NCBI RefSeq assembly: GCF_050920415.1
Contig: NZ_CP169309.1
Direction: 5' to 3' (one strand)
Source: Escherichia coli
GTDB lineage: Bacteria; Pseudomonadota; Gammaproteobacteria; Enterobacterales; Enterobacteriaceae
DNA: 64,000 nucleotides
Shown here one piece after another: positions 3,419-63,300 of this stretch (positions within the stretch are counted from its first letter, which is position 1; every line of letters starts with the position of its first letter). A program made the translations under genes and the position numbers. The notes under the pieces were generated by a model, which worked only from the letters and a program-made list of their open reading frames with translations, was not told the origin of the DNA and made no database searches.

Positions 3419-5814
<2,396 letters not shown>

Positions 5815-13786: not shown

Positions 13787-13876
13787 AGCCAGCCAATCTT
13801 TTGTATGTCTGTGCGTTTCCATTTGAGTATCCTGAAAACGGGCTTTTCAGCATGGAACGTACATATTAAATAGTAG

Positions 13877-14242
<366 letters not shown>

Positions 14243-18462: not shown

Positions 18463-19839
18463 TTACAAGAAGAAAGGACTTGGCTGGAAGAGACGTTCGA
18501 CGTCGGTAATAAACTTTTTGTCCGTCAGGAACATAATTACATGATCGCCTTGCTCAATACGCAGATTGTCATTGGCAATCATCACATCATTGCCGCGTAC
18601 TACAGCACCAATAATCGTTCCTGGTGGTAGCTTGATTTCATCAATGACTCTGCCCACAACGCGTGAGGTGCTTTCATCACCGTGAGCAACAGCTTCAATA
18701 GCTTCTGCAACACCGCGGCGCAATGAGGAAACACCAACAATATCGGCTTTTCGCACGTGACTAAGCAACGCAGAAATAGTTGCTTGTTGTGGTGAAATCG
18801 CAATATCGATCACGCTCCCCTGAACCAGATCCACATAAGCGCGACGCTGGATCAATACCATCACCTTTTTCGCACCCATACGTTTGGCAAGCATGGCGGA
18901 CATGATATTGGCTTCGTCATCGTTGGTGACGGCAATAAACAGATCAACTTGATCGATATGTTCTTCGGCTAGCAGTTCTTGATCCGACGCATCACCAAAA
19001 AAGACGATCGTATTCTGCAACTTTTCCGCCAGTTCGGCAGCGCGCTGCTGATTACGTTCGATGAGTTTAACGCTGTAATCTTTTTCCAGACGACGCGCCA
19101 GCCCTGCACCGATATTACCGCCGCCAACCAGCATGATCCGCTTATACGGTTTTTCCAGACGTTGCAATTCACTCATCACCGCGCGGATGTGTTGCGAAGC
19201 GGCAATAAAGAACACTTCATCACCAGCTTCAACAATGGTCGAACCTTGCGGACGAATAGGGCGATCGTGGCGGAAAATGGCTGCCACACGAGTATCGATA
19301 TGCGGCATATGTTCGCGCATGGTCGAAAGTGCATTACCAATCAGTGGGCCGCCATAATAGGCTTTAACCACAGCCAGGCTGACTTTACCCTCAGCGAAGT
19401 TCACTACCTGCAGCGCGCCGGGATACTCAATCAGTCGGTAAATATTATCGATAACCAGCTGCTCTGGTGCGATCAGATGATCAATCGGTACAGCATCTGA
19501 ATGAAATAGCTTATCGGCATCGCGCACGTAGTCTGGTGAGCGGATACGAGCGATGCGATTAGGGGTGTTGAAAAGTGAGTAGGCTACCTGGCAGGCAACC
19601 ATATTGGTTTCATCTGAACTGGTTACAGCAACCAGCATATCGGCGTCGTCGGCACCTGCCTCCCGCAATACGCGTGGATGAGAGCCATGCCCCTGCACGA
19701 CCCGCAGGTCAAATTTATCCTGCAAGGTCCGCAGACGCTCACCGTTGGTATCGACAACAGTAATATCGTTGTTCTCGCCAACCAGGTTTTCCGCCAGTGT
19801 GCCGCCAACCTGGCCGGCACCCAGAATGATAATTTTCAT
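18463..19839 (-). CDS. trkA: Trk potassium uptake system NAD-binding subunit TrkA (458 aa)
   Basis: [33 protein letters not shown]... tandem Rossmann/RCK domains. Confidence 0.97.
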
Positions 19840-27409: not shown

Positions 27410-27593
27410 ACGCCACCTCGCGACAGTGAGCTGAAAGCCGCGTCGCAACTGCTCTTTAACAATTTATCAGACAATCTGTGTGGGCACTCGAAGATACGGA
27501 TTCTTAACGTCGCAAGACGAAAAATGAATACCAAGTCTCAAGAGTGAACACGTAATTCATTACGAAGTTTAATTCTTTGAGCATCAAACTTTT

Positions 27594-29129
<1,536 letters not shown>

Positions 29130-29197
29130 CCTTAAAGAACTGTGCTTTGCAGTGCTCACACAGATTGTCTGATGAAAATGAGCAGTAAAACCTCTAC

Positions 29198-29274
<77 letters not shown>

Positions 29275-29316
29275 AATTTGCACCGCAAATTTGAAGAGGT
29301 TTTAACTACATGTTAT

Positions 29317-29392
29317 GGGGCTATAGCTCAGCTGGGAGAGCGCCTGCTTTGCACGCAGGAGGTCTGCGGTTCGATCCCGCATAGCTCCACCA
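29317..29392 (+). tRNA. alaU: tRNA-Ala (anticodon TGC)
   Basis: GGGGCTATAGCTCAGCTGGGAGAGCGCCTGCTTTGCACGCAGGAGGTCTGCGGTTCGATCCCGCATAGCTCCACCA in 16S-23S spacer. Confidence 0.97.
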
Positions 29393-29575
29393 TCTCTGTA
29401 GTGATTAAATAAAAAATACTTCAGAGTGTACCTGCAAAGGTTCACTGCGAAGTTTTGCTCTTTAAAAATCTGGAATAAGCTGAAAATTGAAACACTGAAC
29501 AACGAAAGTTGTTCGTGAGTCTCTCAAATTTTCGCAACACGATGATGAATCGAAAGAAACATCTTCGGGTTGTGA

Positions 29576-32477
<2,902 letters not shown>

Positions 32478-32663
32478 ACAACGCCGAAGATGTTTTGGCG
32501 GATTGAGAGAATTTCAGCTTGGATCCAGAGTCCGAAGGATTTTGCGCTGAGACAAGGCGGCAAATGAAGCGAAGGAAGGAGCATACTGAAGTATGTGACT
32601 GATTTTCGCGAATGCAGCCAACGCAGTATCAGCACAAAAGACACAGGACAGAGCACAGGAATT

Positions 32664-32783
32664 TGCCTGGCGGCCGTAGCGCGGTGGTCCCACCTGACCC
32701 CATGCCGAACTCAGAAGTGAAACGCCGTAGCGCCGATGGTAGTGTGGGGTCTCCCCATGCGAGAGTAGGGAACTGCCAGGCAT
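32664..32783 (+). rRNA. rrfD: 5S ribosomal RNA (120 nt), first copy
   Basis: TGCCTGGCGGCCGTAGCGCGGTGGTCCCACCTGACCCCATGCCGAACTCAGAAGTGAAACGCCGTAGCGCCGATGGTAGTGTGGGGTCTCCCCATGCGAGAGTAGGGAACTGCCAGGCAT. Confidence 0.97.
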
Positions 32784-32835
32784 CAAATTACGAAGAATGG
32801 CACTGACCTTTGAGGCAGTTCACTACTCGATAAGA

Positions 32836-32930
32836 GAGTAGGACAAAAGCGAAAGCTTTTGAACGTTGCGAAGCAACGGCCCGAAGGGTGAATCGCGAAG
32901 TGATTCATAAACTGCCAGGCATCAAATTAA
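32836..32930 (+). repeat. rrn distal spacer module copy 1 (GAACGTTGCGAAGCAACGGCCCGAAGGGTG hairpin + 5S 3'-end fragment AACTGCCAGGCATCAAATTA)
   Basis: Imperfect direct repeat of 33243..33345; includes a ~20-nt copy of the 5S 3' terminus. Confidence 0.7.
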
Positions 32931-32934
32931 GCGT

Positions 32935-33010
32935 GCTGATATGGCTCAGTTGGTAGAGCGCACCCTTGGTAAGGGTGAGGTCCCCAGTTCGACTCTGGGT
33001 ATCAGCACCA
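32935..33010 (+). tRNA. thrV: tRNA-Thr (anticodon GGT)
   Basis: GCTGATATGGCTCAGTTGGTAGAGCGCACCCTTGGTAAGGGTGAGGTCCCCAGTTCGACTCTGGGTATCAGCACCA between the two 5S genes, as in rrnD. Confidence 0.96.
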
Positions 33011-33047
33011 CTTTTTAGGTTAAAGTTCGGCAGATTAGAAAAGAATT

Positions 33048-33167
33048 TGTCTGGCGGCAGTAGCGCGGTGGTCCCACCTGACCCCATGCCGAACTCAGAA
33101 GTGAAACGCCGTAGCGCCGATGGTAGTGTGGGGTCTCCCCATGCGAGAGTAGGGAACTGCCAGACAT
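33048..33167 (+). rRNA. rrfF: 5S ribosomal RNA (120 nt), second copy
   Basis: TGTCTGGCGGCAGTAGCGCGGTGGTCCCACC...GGGAACTGCCAGACAT; near-identical to first 5S copy with terminal-helix variants. Confidence 0.96.
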
Positions 33168-50685: not shown

Positions 50686-51156
50686 TTACTCGATGACGAC
50701 CAGCGGCTCGTCAAATTCTACCGGTTGTCCACTTTCGACCAGAATTGCTTTCACGGTACCGGATTTGTCCGCTTCGATCTGGTTCATCATTTTCATGGCT
50801 TCAACGATGCACAGGGTATCGCCCACGTTGACTTTCTGACCCACTTCGATGAACGCTTTTGCGTCCGGGCTTGGGGTGCGGTAGAAAGTACCAACCATCG
50901 GGGAACGTACGATGTGACCACTGATTTCCGCTGCTGCTGGCGCTTCCATGGAAGGAACGGTCGCCGGAGCGGCTGCGTTAGATTGAGCTGGCTGCTGCAT
51001 CATTGGTGCAGCGTAAGCTTGTTGCATCACAGGGAAACTTGCGGCAGGAGCTGCACGGCTGATGCGTACTGACTCTTCGCCTTCTGAGATTTCCAGTTCG
51101 GAGATGCCTGATTCTTCAACCAGCTCGATCAGTTTTTTAATCTTACGAATATCCAT
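50686..51156 (-). CDS. accB: Biotin carboxyl carrier protein of acetyl-CoA carboxylase (156 aa)
   Basis: [43 protein letters not shown]... with biotinylation motif EAMKMMN. Confidence 0.97.
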
Positions 51157-52133
51157 GAGTGGGTTCCGTACTCTTTGTTTAGTGTGATTGTGACAGGCGT
51201 TTCACCGCCGTCTGTAAAGCGTATGCCCCGACAGCTGTATGCATAGCGATAAATTCCAGCAGGCCGGGACGCCGGTCTATTTTGCCCCAGAGTGTCAATG
51301 TTAGACTTGACGGACATTGTGCAGCGATCTGCTGCTATCCTCCGGCAAAAAACAAAATATACCTTCGTTGCGCCAATGTCACCTTTTCCGCAGCGCAAAA
51401 ACTGCGTCAGGGAGGACGAGGTCGCACATTATAACGATTTCGTAGCAATTGGCAGCTAAATACTGGTCTTATCAGGGAAGATAATCAACAGCTAACATGT
51501 AAATAACCTTCAACACCGTGTAATTTGCAACAAGCCGCACAATTCACGAAATTAGCGCTATCGTCGACGGAACTTCTTATAACGTAAGGCTAAAAGCTGT
51601 AAAGCCAGCTCTGCGAAGATGAGGGGCTGCAATGAGATGATCCTCACAGACCACAAATAATGTAGGGATGTCAGGATCGCGGCAAGATAGACGACATTAC
51701 GCAGCGGTTGCTGGTGATTACTCAATTTTCACGGCATCGTCTGGATAAACGTGAATGCTAAAGCACGCAAAATCAACAAACTGACAATGCTCAGCATCAA
51801 ATACGTTCGAGTGGTTAATTTGTAGGCAAATAAAATCAGATTATTCACCCCATGGTACCAGAAATCAGTAACAGGTTAAGCGTAGCGTCGCCCAGGCAAA
51901 GCACCATAAACCTAACAGGCGACGGAGGCGTATCAATAATGGCTGTTTAGTGGAGTAACAGTGCGCATCAATTTATGGTCAGTCGAAATCATGACTTTCC
52001 AGTTTGGATGATGTTGTACAACTTCATGACCAAGATGTTCGACGAAAGCTGTCCGGCTAACCGCTTTTCCCGTTAACCGATTGAATAATGATTTCAAAAT
52101 GAGTTCCCTCTCTTATTAATCCTTGCTAAATGG

Positions 52134-53108
52134 TTAGTTAATCTTCACCAGCGTGCGACCCTGGATCTGGTTATTAATGATGGCTTCGGCAAATTTTGGT
52201 GCTTCTGCCAGAGATATCTCTTTTGCTGCCTGGGTATAGAATGATTCCGGTAAATCGGCGACCAGTCGCTGCCAGGCTTGTGCGCGGCGTGCTGGTGGCG
52301 TCATCACTGAATCCACCCCCTGTAAACGGACATTACGCAGAATAAATGGCATGACCGTGGTTGGCAGAGTAAAACCACCCGCCAGACCACAGGCCGCCAC
52401 GCAGCCGCCGTAATTCATTTGCGCCAGCACTTTCGCCAGCACTTTGTCGCCAACGGTGTCAATTGCCCCAGCCCAGAGTTGTTTTTCCAGAGGACGGGAT
52501 TCGGCAAACTCATCGCGAGGGAGAATACGGCTGGCACCTAAACTTTTCAGATATTCATGGGTACTTTCGCGACCGGAAACGGCAACGACCTGATAACCCA
52601 ACTTATGCAGCAGCGCCACGGCGGTACTGCCGACGCCACCACTGGCACCCGTTACGACAATCTCGCCGTCCTGCGGGCGAACACCGGCATCTTCCAGCGC
52701 CATCACACACAGCATGGCGGTAAAACCGGCAGTACCGATAATCATTGCTTTACGCGCGTCCAGCCCTTGCGGCATGGCAACCAGCCAGTCACCTTTCACT
52801 CGCGCCTGCTCCGCCAGCCCACCCCAGTGGTTTTCACCAACGCCCCAGCCAGTGAGTAATACGTCCTGACCGGCATGAAAACGCGGATCTTCGCTGGTGC
52901 GTACAGTTCCGGCAAAATCGATCCCAGGAATCATCGGAAAATTACGGATGATTTTTCCCTTACCGGTAATTGCCAGCGCATCTTTGTAGTTCAGGCTCGA
53001 CCAGTGAACATCAACCGTGACATCGCCCTCCGGCAGGCGACTTTCGTCCAGAGTCTGTACCGATGCGAGAGTTTTGCCGTCCTGCTGTTCTAAAAGTAAC
53101 GCCTGCAT
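52134..53108 (-). CDS. acuI: NADPH-dependent acrylyl-CoA reductase AcuI/YhdH (324 aa)
   Basis: ORF MQALLLEQQDGKTLASVQTLDESRLPEGDVTVDVHWSSLNYKDALAITGKGKIIRNFPMIPGIDFAGTV... MDR/quinone-oxidoreductase fold. Confidence 0.93.
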   Translation of the reverse strand: MQALLLEQQDGKTLASVQTLDESRLPEGDVTVDVHWSSLNYKDALAITGKGKIIRNFPMIPGIDFAGTVRTSEDPRFHAGQDVLLTGWGVGENHWGGLAEQARVKGDWLVAMPQGLDARKAMIIGTAGFTAMLCVMALEDAGVRPQDGEIVVTGASGGVGSTAVALLHKLGYQVVAVSGRESTHEYLKSLGASRILPRDEFAESRPLEKQLWAGAIDTVGDKVLAKVLAQMNYGGCVAACGLAGGFTLPTTVMPFILRNVRLQGVDSVMTPPARRAQAWQRLVADLPESFYTQAAKEISLAEAPKFAEAIINNQIQGRTLVKIN

Positions 53109-53259: not shown

Positions 53260-55200
53260 ATGAGATTAACGACGAAATTTTCGGCCTTTGTTACGCTGCT
53301 CACCGGGTTAACAATTTTTGTGACTTTGTTGGGCTGTTCGCTAAGTTTCTACAACGCCATTCAGTATAAGTTTAGTCATCGCGTTCAGGCGGTGGCGACG
53401 GCGATTGATACCCACCTTGTGTCGAATGACTTCAGCGCATTAAGGCCACAAATTACCGAATTAATGATGTCAGCAGATATCGTTCGTGTAGACCTGCTGC
53501 ATGGTGATAAACAGGTTTATACCCTCGCCAGAAATGGTAGTTATCGTCCGGTTGGCACCAGCGATCTGTTTCGCGAACTGAGCGTTCCGTTGATAAAGCA
53601 TCCGGGGATGTCGCTGCGTCTGGTTTATCAGGATCCGATGGGCAACTATTTCCATTCGTTGATGACCACCGCGCCGCTCACGGGGGCGATTGGCTTTATC
53701 ATTCTTATGCTCTTCCTGGCGGTACGCTGGTTACAACGGCAACTTGCCGGGCAAGAATTGCTGGAAACCCGGGCTACTCGTATCTTAAACGGTGAGCGTG
53801 GCTCTAATGTGTTGGGAACCATCTATGAATGGCCGCCCAGAACCAGCAGTGCGCTGGATACGCTGCTTCGTGAAATTCAGAACGCACGCGAACAACACAG
53901 CCGTCTTGATACGCTGATCCGCTCTTATGCCGCCCAGGACATGAAAACCGGCCTCAATAACCGACTCTTCTTCGATAATCAGTTAGCAACGTTACTGGAA
54001 GATCAGGAGAAAGTAGGTACCCACGGGATCGTGATGATGATTCGTCTACCGGATTTCAATATGTTGAGCGATACCTGGGGGCACAGCCAGGTTGAAGAAC
54101 AGTTCTTCACTCTGACGAATCTGCTGTCGACATTTATGATGCGCTACCCTGGCGCACTGCTGGCGCGTTACCACCGCAGTGATTTTGCTGCGCTGTTGCC
54201 GCACCGGACGTTAAAAGAGGCTGAGAGCATAGCCAGTCAGTTAATCAAAGCCGTCGATACCTTGCCGAACAATAAAATGCTCGATCGCGACGATATGATC
54301 CACATTGGTATCTGTGCCTGGCGTAGTGGTCAGGATACCGAGCAGGTAATGGAACATGCAGAGTCTGCCACGCGTAATGCGGGATTGCAGGGCGGCAATA
54401 GCTGGGCTATTTACGATGACTCGTTGCCTGAAAAAGGACGCGGTAATGTTCGCTGGCGTACGCTTATCGAGCAAATGCTGAGTCGCGGCGGCCCGCGCCT
54501 TTATCAAAAACCTGCGGTTACTCGCGAAGGTCAGGTTCATCATCGCGAACTCATGTGCCGCATCTTCGATGGTAATGAAGAGGTTAGCTCGGCGGAGTAT
54601 ATGCCGATGGTCTTGCAGTTTGGCTTATCGGAAGAGTATGACCGCCTGCAAATCAGCCGTCTTATTCCACTATTGCGTTACTGGCCGGAGGAAAATCTGG
54701 CGATTCAGGTTACCGTTGAGTCGCTGATTCGCCCGCGTTTTCAGCGTTGGCTGCGCGATACGTTAATGCAATGTGAAAGATCGCAACGAAAACGCATAAT
54801 TATTGAACTTGCAGAGGCCGATGTAGGTCAACATATCAGTCGTTTACAACCTGTTATTCGTTTAGTGAATGCTTTAGGGGTGCGGGTAGCCGTCAACCAG
54901 GCTGGTTTGACGCTGGTAAGCACCAGTTGGATCAAAGAACTTAATGTTGAGTTACTCAAGCTCCATCCGGGGCTGGTCAGAAACATTGAGAAGCGAACGG
55001 AGAATCAGCTGCTGGTTCAAAGCCTGGTGGAAGCCTGCTCCGGGACCAGCACCCAGGTTTACGCCACCGGCGTGCGTTCGCGAAGCGAGTGGCAGACCCT
55101 GATTCAGCGCGGTGTTACAGGTGGGCAAGGGGATTTTTTCGCGTCCTCACAGCCACTTGATACTAACGTGAAAAAATATTCACAAAGATACTCGGTTTAA
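53260..55200 (+). CDS. csrD: RNase E specificity factor CsrD (degenerate GGDEF-EAL protein, 646 aa)
   Basis: ORF MRLTTKFSAFVTLLTGLTIFVTLLGCSLSFYNAIQYKF... N-terminal TM segments followed by GGDEF-like and EAL-like regions; upstream of mreB. Confidence 0.92.
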   Translation: MRLTTKFSAFVTLLTGLTIFVTLLGCSLSFYNAIQYKFSHRVQAVATAIDTHLVSNDFSALRPQITELMMSADIVRVDLLHGDKQVYTLARNGSYRPVGTSDLFRELSVPLIKHPGMSLRLVYQDPMGNYFHSLMTTAPLTGAIGFIILMLFLAVRWLQRQLAGQELLETRATRILNGERGSNVLGTIYEWPPRTSSALDTLLREIQNAREQHSRLDTLIRSYAAQDMKTGLNNRLFFDNQLATLLEDQEKVGTHGIVMMIRLPDFNMLSDTWGHSQVEEQFFTLTNLLSTFMMRYPGALLARYHRSDFAALLPHRTLKEAESIASQLIKAVDTLPNNKMLDRDDMIHIGICAWRSGQDTEQVMEHAESATRNAGLQGGNSWAIYDDSLPEKGRGNVRWRTLIEQMLSRGGPRLYQKPAVTREGQVHHRELMCRIFDGNEEVSSAEYMPMVLQFGLSEEYDRLQISRLIPLLRYWPEENLAIQVTVESLIRPRFQRWLRDTLMQCERSQRKRIIIELAEADVGQHISRLQPVIRLVNALGVRVAVNQAGLTLVSTSWIKELNVELLKLHPGLVRNIEKRTENQLLVQSLVEACSGTSTQVYATGVRSRSEWQTLIQRGVTGGQGDFFASSQPLDTNVKKYSQRYSV

Positions 55201-60342: not shown

Positions 60343-63300
60343 GTGAGGCGATTGCCGGGGATTTTACTGCTTACTGGAGCCGCGCTCGTTGTGATCGCTG
60401 CCCTGCTGGTTAGCGGCCTGCGTATTGCTTTACCGCATCTTGACGCCTGGCGTCCGGAAATCCTTAACAAAATAGAATCCGCGACTGGCATGCCGGTAGA
60501 AGCCAGTCAGCTCTCAGCCAGCTGGCAGAATTTTGGCCCGACGCTTGAAGCACACGACATCCGTGCAGAACTAAAAGATGGCGGCGAATTTTCGGTTAAA
60601 CGCGTTACGCTGGCGCTGGATGTCTGGCAAAGCCTGTTACATATGCGCTGGCAGTTTCGTGATCTCACTTTCTGGCAGCTGCGCTTTCGCACCAACACTC
60701 CTATCACCAGCGGTGGTGGTAATGATAGCCTGGAAGCCAGTCACATCAGCGATCTGTTTCTTCGTCAATTCGACCATTTCGATCTCCGTGACAGCGAAGT
60801 CAGTTTCCTGACGCCATCCGGTCAGCGTGCTGAGCTGGCGATTCCACAACTCACCTGGCTAAACGATCCACGTCGACACCGTGCGGAAGGCCAGGTAAGC
60901 CTCTCCAGCCTTACCGGACAGCACGGCGTGATGCAGGTGCGCATGGATCTGCGTGATGACGAAGGGCTGTTAAGCAACGGTCGTGTCTGGCTCCAGGCGG
61001 ATGACATCGACCTGAAGCCGTGGCTGGGTAAATGGATGCAGGACAATATTGCGCTGGAAACGGCACAGTTCTCCCTTGAAGGCTGGATGACGATCGATAA
61101 AGGCGATGTAACCGGCGGCGACGTCTGGCTGAAACAGGGCGGTGCCAGCTGGTTGGGTGAGAAGCAAACGCATACGCTGTCGGTGGATAATCTGACTGCG
61201 CACATTACGCGTGAAAATCCGGGCTGGCAGTTCTCTATTCCCGATACACGGATCACGATGGACGGTAAACCCTGGCCGAGTGGAGCATTGACGCTGGCCT
61301 GGATACCGGAACAGGACGTTGGCGGCAAAAACAATAAACGCAGTGACGAACTTCGGATTCGCGCCAGTAATCTGGAGTTGGCTGGACTGGAAGGCATACG
61401 CCCGCTGGCCGCGAAACTTTCACCTGCGTTGGGTGAGGTTTGGCGCGCCACACAACCGAGCGGCAAGATAAACACGCTGGCGCTGGATATCCCGCTTCAG
61501 GCAGCAGACAAGACCCGTTTTCAGGCATCGTGGAGCGATCTGGCCTGGAAGCAATGGAAATTATTGCCAGGTGCGGAACACTTCTCCGGGACGCTTTCCG
61601 GCAGCGTAGAAAATGGTTTGCTTACCGCGTCGATGAAACAGGCGAAGATGCCTTACGAAACGGTATTCCGTGCACCACTGGAAATCGCCGACGGCCAGGC
61701 AACTATAAGCTGGCTGAACAATGACAAAGGTTTCCAGCTGGATGGGAGTGATATTGACGTTAAAGCCAAAGCCGTCCATGCGCGCGGCGGTTTTCGTTAC
61801 CTGCAACCTGCTAACGATGAACCCTGGCTGGGTATTCTGGCTGGCATCAGTACCGATGATGGTTCACAAGCCTGGCGCTATTTCCCGGAAAACTTGATGG
61901 GTAAAGACCTGGTTGATTACTTAAGTGGCGCGATTCAGGGCGGTGAAGCGGATAACGCGACGCTGGTTTATGGTGGCAATCCGCAACTCTTCCCCTATAA
62001 ACACAACGAAGGTCAGTTTGAAGTGCTGGTGCCGCTGCGCAACGCGAAGTTTGCCTTCCAGCCGGACTGGCCTGCATTAACTAACCTTGATATTGAACTG
62101 GACTTTATTAACGACGGTTTATGGATGAAAACCGATGGCGTTAATCTGGGCGGCGTGCGCGCGAGTAATCTCACCGCAGTGATCCCTGACTACTCGAAAG
62201 AAAAACTGCTGATTGACGCTGAAATTAAAGGTCCGGGTAAAGCCGTTGGCCCTTACTTTGATGAGACACCGCTGAAAGATTCTCTGGGGGCGACCCTGCA
62301 AGAACTCCAGCTCGACGGCGATGTGAATGCTCGCTTACATCTTGATATCCCGCTGAACGGCGAACTGGTAACCGCGAAAGGTGATGTGACGCTGCGTAAT
62401 AACAGTCTGTTTATCAAACCACTCGACAGCACCCTGAAAAATTTGAGCGGTAAATTCAGCTTTATCAATGGCGATCTGCAAAGTGAACCACTGACAGCAA
62501 GCTGGTTTAATCAGCCGTTGAACGTGGATTTTTCCACCAAAGAAGGGGCAAAGGCCTACCAGGTCGCGGTGAATCTCAACGGTAATTGGCAACCAGCGAA
62601 AACCGGCGTTCTGCCTGCAGCGGTGAACGAAGCATTGAGTGGCAGCGTGGCGTGGGATGGTAAAGTGGGCATTGTTCTGCCTTATCATGCTGGCGCGACG
62701 TATAACGTAGAGCTAAACGGTGATCTGAAGAATGTGAGCAGTCACTTACCTTCACCGTTAGCCAAACCCGCTGGCGAATCGCTGCCGGTTAACATTAAGG
62801 TCGATGGCAACCTCAATAGCTTTGAATTAACCGGACAGGCTGGTGCGGATAACCATTTCAATAGCCGCTGGTTGCTCGGTCAAAAGCTGACGCTCGACCG
62901 TGCTATTTGGGCGGCAGACAGTAAAACGCTCCCGCCGTTGCCGGAACAAAGTGGTGTTGAACTCAATATGCCGCCGATGAATGGTGCCGAGTGGCTGGCC
63001 CTGTTCCAGAAAGGTGCGGCGGAGAGTGTCGGTGGTGCAGCGAGTTTCCCACAACACATAACGTTACGTACGCCTATGTTGTCGCTGGGAAATCAGCAAT
63101 GGAATAACCTGAGTATTGTTTCGCAACCGACGGCAAATGGCACCCAGGTTGAGGCGCAAGGGCGTGAAATCAACGCCACGCTGGCGATGCGTAATAACGC
63201 GCCGTGGCTGGCGAATATCAAATATCTTTATTACAACCCGAGCGAGGCGAAAACTCGTGGTGATTCAACGCCGTCATCACCTTTCCCGACAACGGAGCGC

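Follow-up and report, generated by a model that had tools for sequence, protein, structure and literature searches.

Gene content of the acuI-accB interval

The window, by which we mean the whole 64,000 nt stretch of DNA that was analysed, is a segment of the Escherichia coli chromosome, reverse-complemented with respect to K-12. Its local gene order is csrD (53260..55200, plus strand), acuI (also called yhdH; 52134..53108, minus strand, stop codon TAA at 52134..52136), a gap, accB (50686..51156, minus strand) and accC (minus strand). The gap occupies 51157..52133 (977 bp), corresponding to K-12 3404459..3405435, and all features recognised in it lie on the minus strand in the order, from acuI to accB, yrdF', yrdE, promoter block and leader. 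Among complete E. coli genomes, 5420 out of 5426 carry it at 95-99% identity; it is 96% identical over its whole length to K-12-type genomes, and has a GC content of 42-47%, versus 52-60% for the flanking genes. None of the ORFs that reach 100 aa extends into 51157..52133, bearing out a sequence-only reading of this DNA that had reported an ORF-poor spacer of ~975 bp between the two genes. That reading had also called it by far the longest ORF-free stretch, which holds with a 60-aa cut-off (51399..52133 is then the longest in the whole window); with a 100-aa cut-off two stretches, 27449..28663 and 30104..33014, and only these, are longer, both of them in the rRNA operon (~27.6-33.2 kb). It had left several hundred bp of the gap unexplained; the 540 bp nearest acuI belong to two pseudogenes, yrdF and yrdE.

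An acuI terminator had likewise been expected in the gap, and no intrinsic terminator is predicted there on either strand: a search for GC-rich hairpins followed by a T-run found 0 terminator-like sites across 51000..52300, and the next gene's relic begins 36 nt past the acuI stop codon. The low GC content of the gap, together with the polymorphism of the locus, which has two alleles in E. coli, might be read as the scar of a mobile element or repeat (REP/IS) insertion. We regard this as extremely improbable, since a scan of the gap for tRNA and tmRNA genes found none and most of its length can be aligned with related genera, either with ordinary chromosomal genes there or with the conserved promoter and 5' UTR. 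Direct repeats are absent and the inverted repeats amount to one short palindrome, on which grounds a REP/IS scar was rejected.

Relics of a DUF1444-like gene and of msrQ

A 36 nt spacer (52098..52133, minus strand) that includes a ribosome-binding region (AGAGAGGGAAC) runs from the acuI stop to the TTG start of a truncated DUF1444-like gene, and the same spacer stands before the DUF1444 gene both in E. albertii, where that gene is nearly full-length (271 aa), and in E. coli ECN24, where it is intact (276 aa). The relic, yrdF' (51955..52097, minus strand), comprises the first ~47 codons of the 276-aa gene, truncated by deletion, and corresponds to the 143 bp yrdF (b4697) annotated between yhdH and accB in K-12 MG1655. 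The 54-aa ORF that spans it (51933..52097) has its first 46 residues in common with the intact ECN24 protein and matches no Pfam or NCBIfam family; DNA homology to the intact allele stops at nucleotide 179 of the gap, window position 51955. Where the intact gene is present, as in ECN24, it sits directly after acuI. Its unique part occurs in 667 of the 5426 E. coli genomes (~12%), and the deletion that formed yrdF' is carried by the other ~88%, this strain included. PGAP names the intact 276-aa allele 'DUF1444 domain-containing'; its match to Pfam DUF1444 (PF07285) covers profile positions 16-254 of 264 with a score (15.7 bits) below the cut-off of 23.8. A hairpin and T-run (ACCGAAGCCGATTT...AAATCGGCTTTTTTATT) follow the DUF1444 stop codon of the intact allele, in a segment that is deleted from this window.

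Adjacent to yrdF', yrdE (51558..51954, minus strand) is a relic of codons ~66-199 of msrQ, the gene for the yedZ-type heme-binding subunit of methionine sulfoxide reductase. The K-12 annotation of yrdE (b4646) covers 394 bp, equivalent to 51561..51954 (minus strand), and PGAP, in a strain with 100% identity to the window across the gap, assigns 51558..51948 to a pseudo 'sulfoxide reductase heme-binding subunit YedZ'. The arrangement acuI - yrdF' - yrdE - accB has been listed previously, with yrdF and yrdE stated to be pseudogenes (J. Bacteriol., PMC7648144). A conceptual translation of 130 residues, made by joining two reading frames, matched the NCBIfam MsrQ equivalog NF003831 over profile positions 69-195 of 212 (E = 2e-24, 86.3 bits, cut-off 130) and gave no match to Pfam, Ferric_reduct (PF01794) included, at E <= 0.01. 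Judged by this profile match, yrdE is homologous to the MsrQ/YedZ family without being a full member of it.

Lesions in yrdE were mapped by codon-wise alignment to Citrobacter msrQ. N-terminal codons 1-65 are missing; codon 96 is TGA (51865..51867) in this window, a lesion absent from K-12; a net +1 frameshift affects codons 100-101 (near 51846..51859); R141 is replaced by TGA (51729..51731), in K-12 as well; and a premature TAG stop occurs at 51558..51560. The loss of 65 codons, two internal TGA codons, one frameshift and the lack of an adjacent msrP identify yrdE as a pseudogene. No remnant of msrP, the expected partner of the ~199-211-codon msrQ, was found in the gap, and functional msrPQ is present at another locus in 5411 E. 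coli genomes. The K-12 yrdF and yrdE agree with those of this strain in locus, order and strand, and the truncation point, the frameshift and the R141 stop are common to both; the yrdE allele of this strain is nonetheless rare, being at least 99% identical to that of one genome only and 90-95% identical to those of 4997.

The 5' truncation point of the msrQ relic lies at codon ~66 in the yrdF-yrdE allele, at codon ~97 in the E. coli allele with intact DUF1444 and at codon ~121 in E. albertii. Three distinct truncation points suggest successive independent deletions from an inferred acuI - DUF1444 - msrQ' ancestor. Codons 66-96 of msrQ survive in the yrdF-yrdE allele but are gone from the ECN24-type allele, so neither DUF1444 allele can be derived simply from the other and an extinct common ancestor must be assumed.

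Gene order upstream of accB in related genera

Scanning species-representative genomes for AccB yielded 80 loci from other species, in the majority of which msrP-msrQ-aroQ, or aroQ alone, lies immediately before accB. The order (csrD)-acuI-msrP-msrQ-aroQ-accB occurs in Citrobacter, Enterobacter, Kluyvera, Pseudescherichia, Cedecea, Erwinia, Pantoea, Serratia, Yersinia, Hafnia, Edwardsiella and others, and the intact genes of these relatives carry the Pfam domains Oxidored_molyb, Ferric_reduct and DHquinase_II. Most other Gammaproteobacteria sampled also have aroQ immediately 5' of accB, and in Acinetobacter aroQ-accBC has been given as one unit ('TU: aroQ-accBC'; PMC10865783). yrdE thus occupies the position of the intact msrQ in the msrPQ (yedYZ) operon, which encodes a periplasmic methionine sulfoxide reductase and its heme-b membrane partner; compared with that operon in Citrobacter, Enterobacter, Serratia and Yersinia, the locus in the window is without msrP and its msrQ is broken. 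Because related genera have an intact msrP-msrQ at this conserved position, we read yrdE as a vestige of the msrQ that stood there.

A different origin for yrdE, as the decayed product of a local duplication of E. coli msrQ/yedZ (a paralog), is suggested by older E. coli gene databases, which describe yrdE as a yedZ paralog fragment. It would also fit the 89% identity of yrdE residues 69-95 to E. coli MsrQ, with 63% over the rest, a difference that gene conversion could produce; the E. coli MsrQ sequence in this comparison served as a guide only, our conclusions being based on the NCBIfam profile and on Citrobacter msrQ. The same residues are, however, equally (89%) identical to Citrobacter MsrQ, indicating that the segment is simply well conserved. 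The ends of the proteins also speak against duplication: the tail of K-12 yrdE (RYKKFRR*WR, or ...FRQWWR) and that of E. albertii (RYKKFRQWWR) match the short tail of the syntenic Citrobacter protein (RYRKFRQWWR), and differ from the longer C-terminal tail of E. coli MsrQ. As intact msrP-msrQ fills the interval separating acuI (or csrD) from aroQ/accB in the majority of Enterobacterales loci examined, we consider a local duplicate improbable and retain the interpretation of yrdE as a syntenic vestige.

A conserved promoter block

From the msrQ stop, a spacer (51487..51557, minus strand) that varies between genera but not among the seven E. coli sequences compared block by block leads to a 66 bp block (51421..51486, minus strand) containing the accBC promoter, ancestrally that of aroQ-accBC. 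On the minus strand the block holds a -35 hexamer, CTGCCA (51450..51455), a -10 hexamer, TATAAT (51428..51433), and a FadR-like palindrome, CTGATAAGACCAG (51463..51475). CTGCCA-16-TATAAT is the best sigma-70 match of the region, agreeing at 10/12 positions with a spacing in the 16-18 nt range. The block is conserved in at least 11 genera and near-invariant across Escherichia, Citrobacter, Enterobacter, Kluyvera, Serratia, Yersinia, Brenneria and Photorhabdus. Its -10 hexamer is separated from the accB ATG by 584-586 nt in loci with an intact aroQ and by 268-291 nt in those that have lost the gene.

The position of these hexamers suggests that accBC transcription starts near 51421/51422; Li and Cronan are said to have placed the start roughly 300 nt upstream of accB. 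Of the contents that the sequence-only reading had assigned to the gap, the accBC promoter and long leader are supported (the conserved 66 bp block with its TATAAT lies ~265 nt upstream of accB) and the terminator was not found. Other hexamer pairs in or near the conserved region are TTGATT-17-CAGTAT, upstream, and GTGACA-17-TATTTT at 51354..51382; promoter-like sites in the region number 4 against 2.4 ± 1.6 expected, which is chance level.

Patterns of the FadR type (CTGGT-N3-ACCAG type) occur 3 times in the window, against 0.24 expected, and the palindrome CTGATAAGACCAG is near-invariant across the genera examined. FadR acts on acc promoters according to published papers, and 51463..51475 is a probable FadR site and candidate operator.

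A collapsed aroQ in the accBC leader

Transcription from this promoter would produce an accBC leader of ~265 nt whose 5' part (51318..51420, minus strand) corresponds to the ancestral aroQ 5' UTR, with a weakly supported 5' hairpin, the motifs GGTGACA and AAGGTATATTTTG (both invariant in alignments A2 and A3) and a degraded aroQ Shine-Dalgarno sequence. It is followed by a 139 bp relic of aroQ, the gene for type II 3-dehydroquinate dehydratase (51179..51317, minus strand; ATG at 51315..51317, TAA at 51179..51181), and by a 22 nt spacer (51157..51178, minus strand) that runs from the aroQ stop to the accB ATG and contains the accB ribosome-binding region. E. coli uses the type I dehydroquinase AroD.

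The relic consists of the ATG and ~10 recognisable N-terminal codons, an internal loss of ~314 bp, and the last 15 codons of the gene (51182..51226), which lie in a different frame from the surviving ATG. With Enterobacter AroQ as query, tblastn matched residues 136-150 at 93% identity, and by blastn aroQ nucleotides 407-453 are matched at 93.6% in 5425 of 5426 E. coli genomes, at a place that carries no annotation; none of the 5426 genomes holds more than 10% of aroQ. For comparison, the aroQ of Enterobacter cloacae encodes 150 aa and ends 21 nt before accB, and the intact Enterobacter gene scores 201 bits against Pfam DHquinase_II (PF01220). The relic has no full DHquinase_II domain (~138 residues) in one frame; only two end fragments occur, in different frames, and the middle of the relic (~51227..51285) has no detectable similarity to aroQ.

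In an alignment of 11 genera (A2) the stretch between the msrQ stop and accB is collinear throughout. The start context of aroQ (GCACAATG) is kept at 51315..51317, the relic's stop codon is separated from the accB ATG by 22 nt, in keeping with the other aligned genera, and the 22 nt spacer, which matches the aroQ-accB spacer of other Gammaproteobacteria, is near-invariant across genera (A2 columns 728-751). The window retains the promoter block, 5' UTR motifs, aroQ start context and last 15 codons of the aroQ-accB-accC unit of Gammaproteobacteria. The ~314 bp are missing in both Escherichia and Citrobacter, and Superficieibacter and Phytobacter have aroQ remnants of differing length, which suggests separate deletions. 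The aroQ Shine-Dalgarno GGAG is intact in every species that bears aroQ and mutated in 6 of the 7 lineages without it, this window having GCAG. Given the loss of ~314 bp and the mutated Shine-Dalgarno, the region now appears to serve only as untranslated accBC leader.

One ORF crosses this region, of 89 aa at 51129..51398 (minus strand), which the sequence-only reading had described as featureless and overlapping the accB start. It exists and matches no Pfam family. It reads through the ancestral aroQ 5' UTR and the relic in the wrong frame, with the aroQ ATG as its codon 28, and ends 27 nt inside accB; in Citrobacter it is not conserved, a stop occurring 9 codons after the ATG (alignment A2). 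As a gene it was rejected on these grounds.

Origin of the interval

We think it very probable that the gap consists of the decayed remains of three genes (the DUF1444-like gene, msrQ and aroQ) around a working accBC promoter and leader. The homologies, the synteny and the lesions described above are direct observations, and from them we infer the order of the deletions. The ancestral order in Enterobacterales would have been csrD - acuI - msrP - msrQ - aroQ - accB - accC, with the aroQ-accBC promoter upstream of aroQ. In the Escherichia lineage a DUF1444-like gene would then have taken the place of msrP and the 5' part of msrQ, and a later deletion would have fused DUF1444 codon 47 to msrQ codon ~66, creating yrdF' and yrdE. 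An internal loss of ~314 bp would have collapsed aroQ, such that the old aroQ promoter and 5' UTR, the 139 bp relic and the 22 nt spacer became the promoter and ~265 nt leader that accBC has at present. The parts working today would be the sigma-70 promoter, the probable FadR site and the leader, the remainder being non-functional relic.

The pseudogenes yrdF and yrdE were already known, as was the long accBC leader with its far-upstream promoter. Added here, from sequence comparison, are that the leader is apparently a collapsed aroQ under the ancestral aroQ-accBC promoter and that yrdE is apparently a syntenic vestige of msrPQ. Both points are absent from RefSeq annotation and from the literature searched (where no earlier account of an aroQ relic ahead of E. 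coli accB was found either), a search whose coverage was incomplete and extended to few subscription journals, so their novelty is not firm. The collapsed aroQ and the yrdE vestige are both ordinary gene decay, and with yrdF and yrdE already annotated in K-12 the finding is itself largely ordinary. Its practical value is in annotation: the gap should not be flagged as empty, since pseudogenes already catalogued make up two of its parts and the remainder is promoter and leader sequence that is likewise known. As yrdE marks the ancestral site of msrPQ, the active E. coli msrPQ copy stands at a non-syntenic locus. The long E. coli accBC leader, for its part, would have a simple historical origin, as what is left of an aroQ that in most relatives still lies between the same promoter and accB.

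Conservation and possible functions of the leader

A conservation comparison to look for constrained sub-blocks had been proposed by the sequence-only reading, and one emerged: the 401 bp promoter-leader half of the gap, between the msrQ stop and the accB ATG, is at least 99% identical to the window in 5425 of 5425 E. coli genomes, and mostly 100%. The accB coding sequence is 98.5-100% identical, a 401 bp control from acuI is 95-99% identical in 5202 genomes, and yrdE is variable, as described above. Variation gives way to invariance at the yrdE stop codon. Ten further assemblies have 0-2 mismatches to the window in the leader and ~3% divergence in accC, and no more than 2 bases of the 401 bp vary in the genomes and loci sampled; leader blocks are 88.7-98.5% identical to those of E. 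albertii. This pattern, which is observed directly, fits a constrained regulatory region adjoining a freely decaying pseudogene. Constraint over the 401 bp is stronger within E. coli than a promoter plus a passive relic would predict, and since near-complete invariance exceeds that expectation, some function of the leader is likely. Co-option of the relic-derived leader for a new function, however, strikes us as rather unlikely. A sequence-specific regulatory RNA, such as a target of AccB feedback or of OmrA, would agree with the pattern, and so would a translated uORF that runs from the aroQ ATG to inside accB and could couple to accB translation.

The accBC operon is under known feedback control, and a candidate for its mediator is the 5' part of the leader, as a cis-regulatory RNA (an attenuator or stabilising hairpin, for example) that would be homologous to Ysr190 (Rfam RF02764, Yersinia sRNA 190) and yield a short transcript of ~100 nt. 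In Yersinia and Serratia Ysr190 scores 77-131 bits at the orthologous place upstream of aroQ, and its model ends in a long stem and U-run. The E. coli match, at the orthologous position 5' of the aroQ start (51354..51453), is full-length (model positions 1-102) and ends in UAUAUUUUGUUUUUU, but at 25.3 bits (E = 0.04-0.4) it is far below the cut-off of 66. Most of this score is contributed by the promoter hexamers together with the invariant U-rich AGGTATATTTT motif, and the Ysr190 stems are poorly conserved in the window, several of their pairs being non-canonical. The Rfam model itself reaches over the -35 and -10 hexamers at its 5' end, which makes part of the modelled 'RNA' promoter sequence.

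Within 17 Enterobacteriaceae sequences a recurrent 5' hairpin has a consensus energy of -7.7 kcal/mol with 4 covarying pairs, some changes being compensatory, which is weak support, and folds of individual sequences have a mean z of -1.47, with 15 of 31 below -1.5. Across 31 genera-wide sequences, however, RNAalifold found no consensus structure; the fold of the whole leader is not distinctive relative to shuffled sequences (z = -1.2), and no terminator is predicted. Even with the near-invariance of the leader in 5425 genomes on its side, a functional cis-regulatory RNA of this kind seems to us rather unlikely.

The remaining proposal, raised by the sequence-only reading, is that a small-protein gene, or an sRNA gene standing on its own, lies unannotated in the gap. 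Three observations could be cited for it besides the weak Ysr190 match and the near-invariant 401 bp on the accB side. A 62-codon ORF extends from the aroQ ATG (51317) to 51129; in E. albertii a pair of indels with opposite signs, separated by 33 nt, keeps the 62-codon ORF open; and the 54-aa ORF at 51933..52097 is labelled 'hypothetical protein' in some genome annotations. The last of these is, however, the truncated N-terminus of the DUF1444-like protein continued into out-of-frame msrQ sequence, and the 62-codon ORF has the mutated Shine-Dalgarno (GGAG to GCAG) and is closed after 9 codons in Citrobacter. Neither Pfam nor NCBIfam gave a match. An Rfam scan had been suggested as a check, and scans of the gap at permissive and gathering thresholds returned nothing above threshold, no family reaching its gathering score. 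Promoter-like sites stand at the chance level given above, no terminator is predicted, and the K-12 annotation has no small gene or sRNA in the gap. No gene of either kind is supported, and we judge one to be very improbable here. If the leader is instead what aroQ left behind, the genera that still bear aroQ can be used as natural comparisons in studies of its regulation.

Allelic variation between acuI and accB

Within-species variation changes sharply right at the yrdE stop codon, which separates window positions 51157..51557 from 51558..51954. The accB-side 401 bp (51157..51557), comprising the accBC promoter and leader, show at least 99% identity, and mostly 100%, in 5425 E. coli genomes, whereas yrdE, an msrQ relic (51558..51954), retains just 90-95% identity in 4997 genomes. 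In E. coli this leader half varies less than the coding sequences of accB (98.5-100%) and accC (~97%); despite such near-invariance within the species, it diverges by up to ~10% from E. albertii.

Two alleles of the acuI-accB locus exist in E. coli. An intact 276-aa DUF1444-like gene is present in 667 of 5426 complete genomes (~12%), and in the allele that carries it the gene has its own hairpin and T-run and the msrQ relic is shorter. The arrangement in E. albertii is similar, with a 271-aa gene and an msrQ relic that is shorter still (among the accB loci fetched from other genomes, the gene lies at 2366..3196 in L003, 2859..3689 in L005 and 2308..3123 in L007, the E. albertii locus). Neither E. 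coli allele is simply derived from the other.

aroQ decay and the accBC leader

Upstream of accB, aroQ is also degraded in Superficieibacter (L015, 3710..4000), Phytobacter (L026, 3622..4000), where its Shine-Dalgarno sequence is still present, and Citrobacter (L008, L009 and L057). Across these three genera the distance from the -10 element to accB is 268-379 nt. The remnants differ in length, which suggests that aroQ was lost repeatedly and independently.

A 62-codon ORF (51129..51317 in the window; 3840..4028 in L007) begins at the retained aroQ ATG and ends 27 nt within accB. The frame is uninterrupted in E. coli as well as in E. albertii, where a single-nucleotide deletion is offset by a single-nucleotide insertion 33 nt away. 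Given the mutated Shine-Dalgarno sequence of this ORF and its closure in Citrobacter, the open frame is probably due to chance.

The Rfam family Ysr190 ('Yersinia sRNA 190') maps onto the promoter-proximal 5' UTR of aroQ-accBC (L063 and L041, 3380..3481; L043, 3238..3339; L028, 3379..3480). Since the model takes in the conserved promoter's -10 element, TATAAT, the family may describe a leader fragment and not an independent sRNA gene.

Gene order and other features

Several Enterobacterales lack acuI at the accB locus, with msrP-msrQ-aroQ-accB directly following csrD (L010, L013, L020, L021, L026, L031, L034, L035, L040, L049, L051). Some assemblies encoding the identical AccB protein (L088 and L092) have DUF4432 and PfkB-family genes after accC on the opposite strand (4423..5471) in place of yhdT-panF, so gene content beyond accC varies.

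The FadR-like palindrome pattern CTGRTNNNACCAG has two further exact matches in the window (19464..19476 and 62502..62514), giving three with the site upstream of accB, versus 0.24 expected by chance. The window's other long ORF-free stretches are explained by an rRNA operon at 27594..33165 (16S, two tRNAs, StyR-44, 23S, 5S, a tRNA and a second 5S). The window also contains an Alpha_RBS element (13807..13918).
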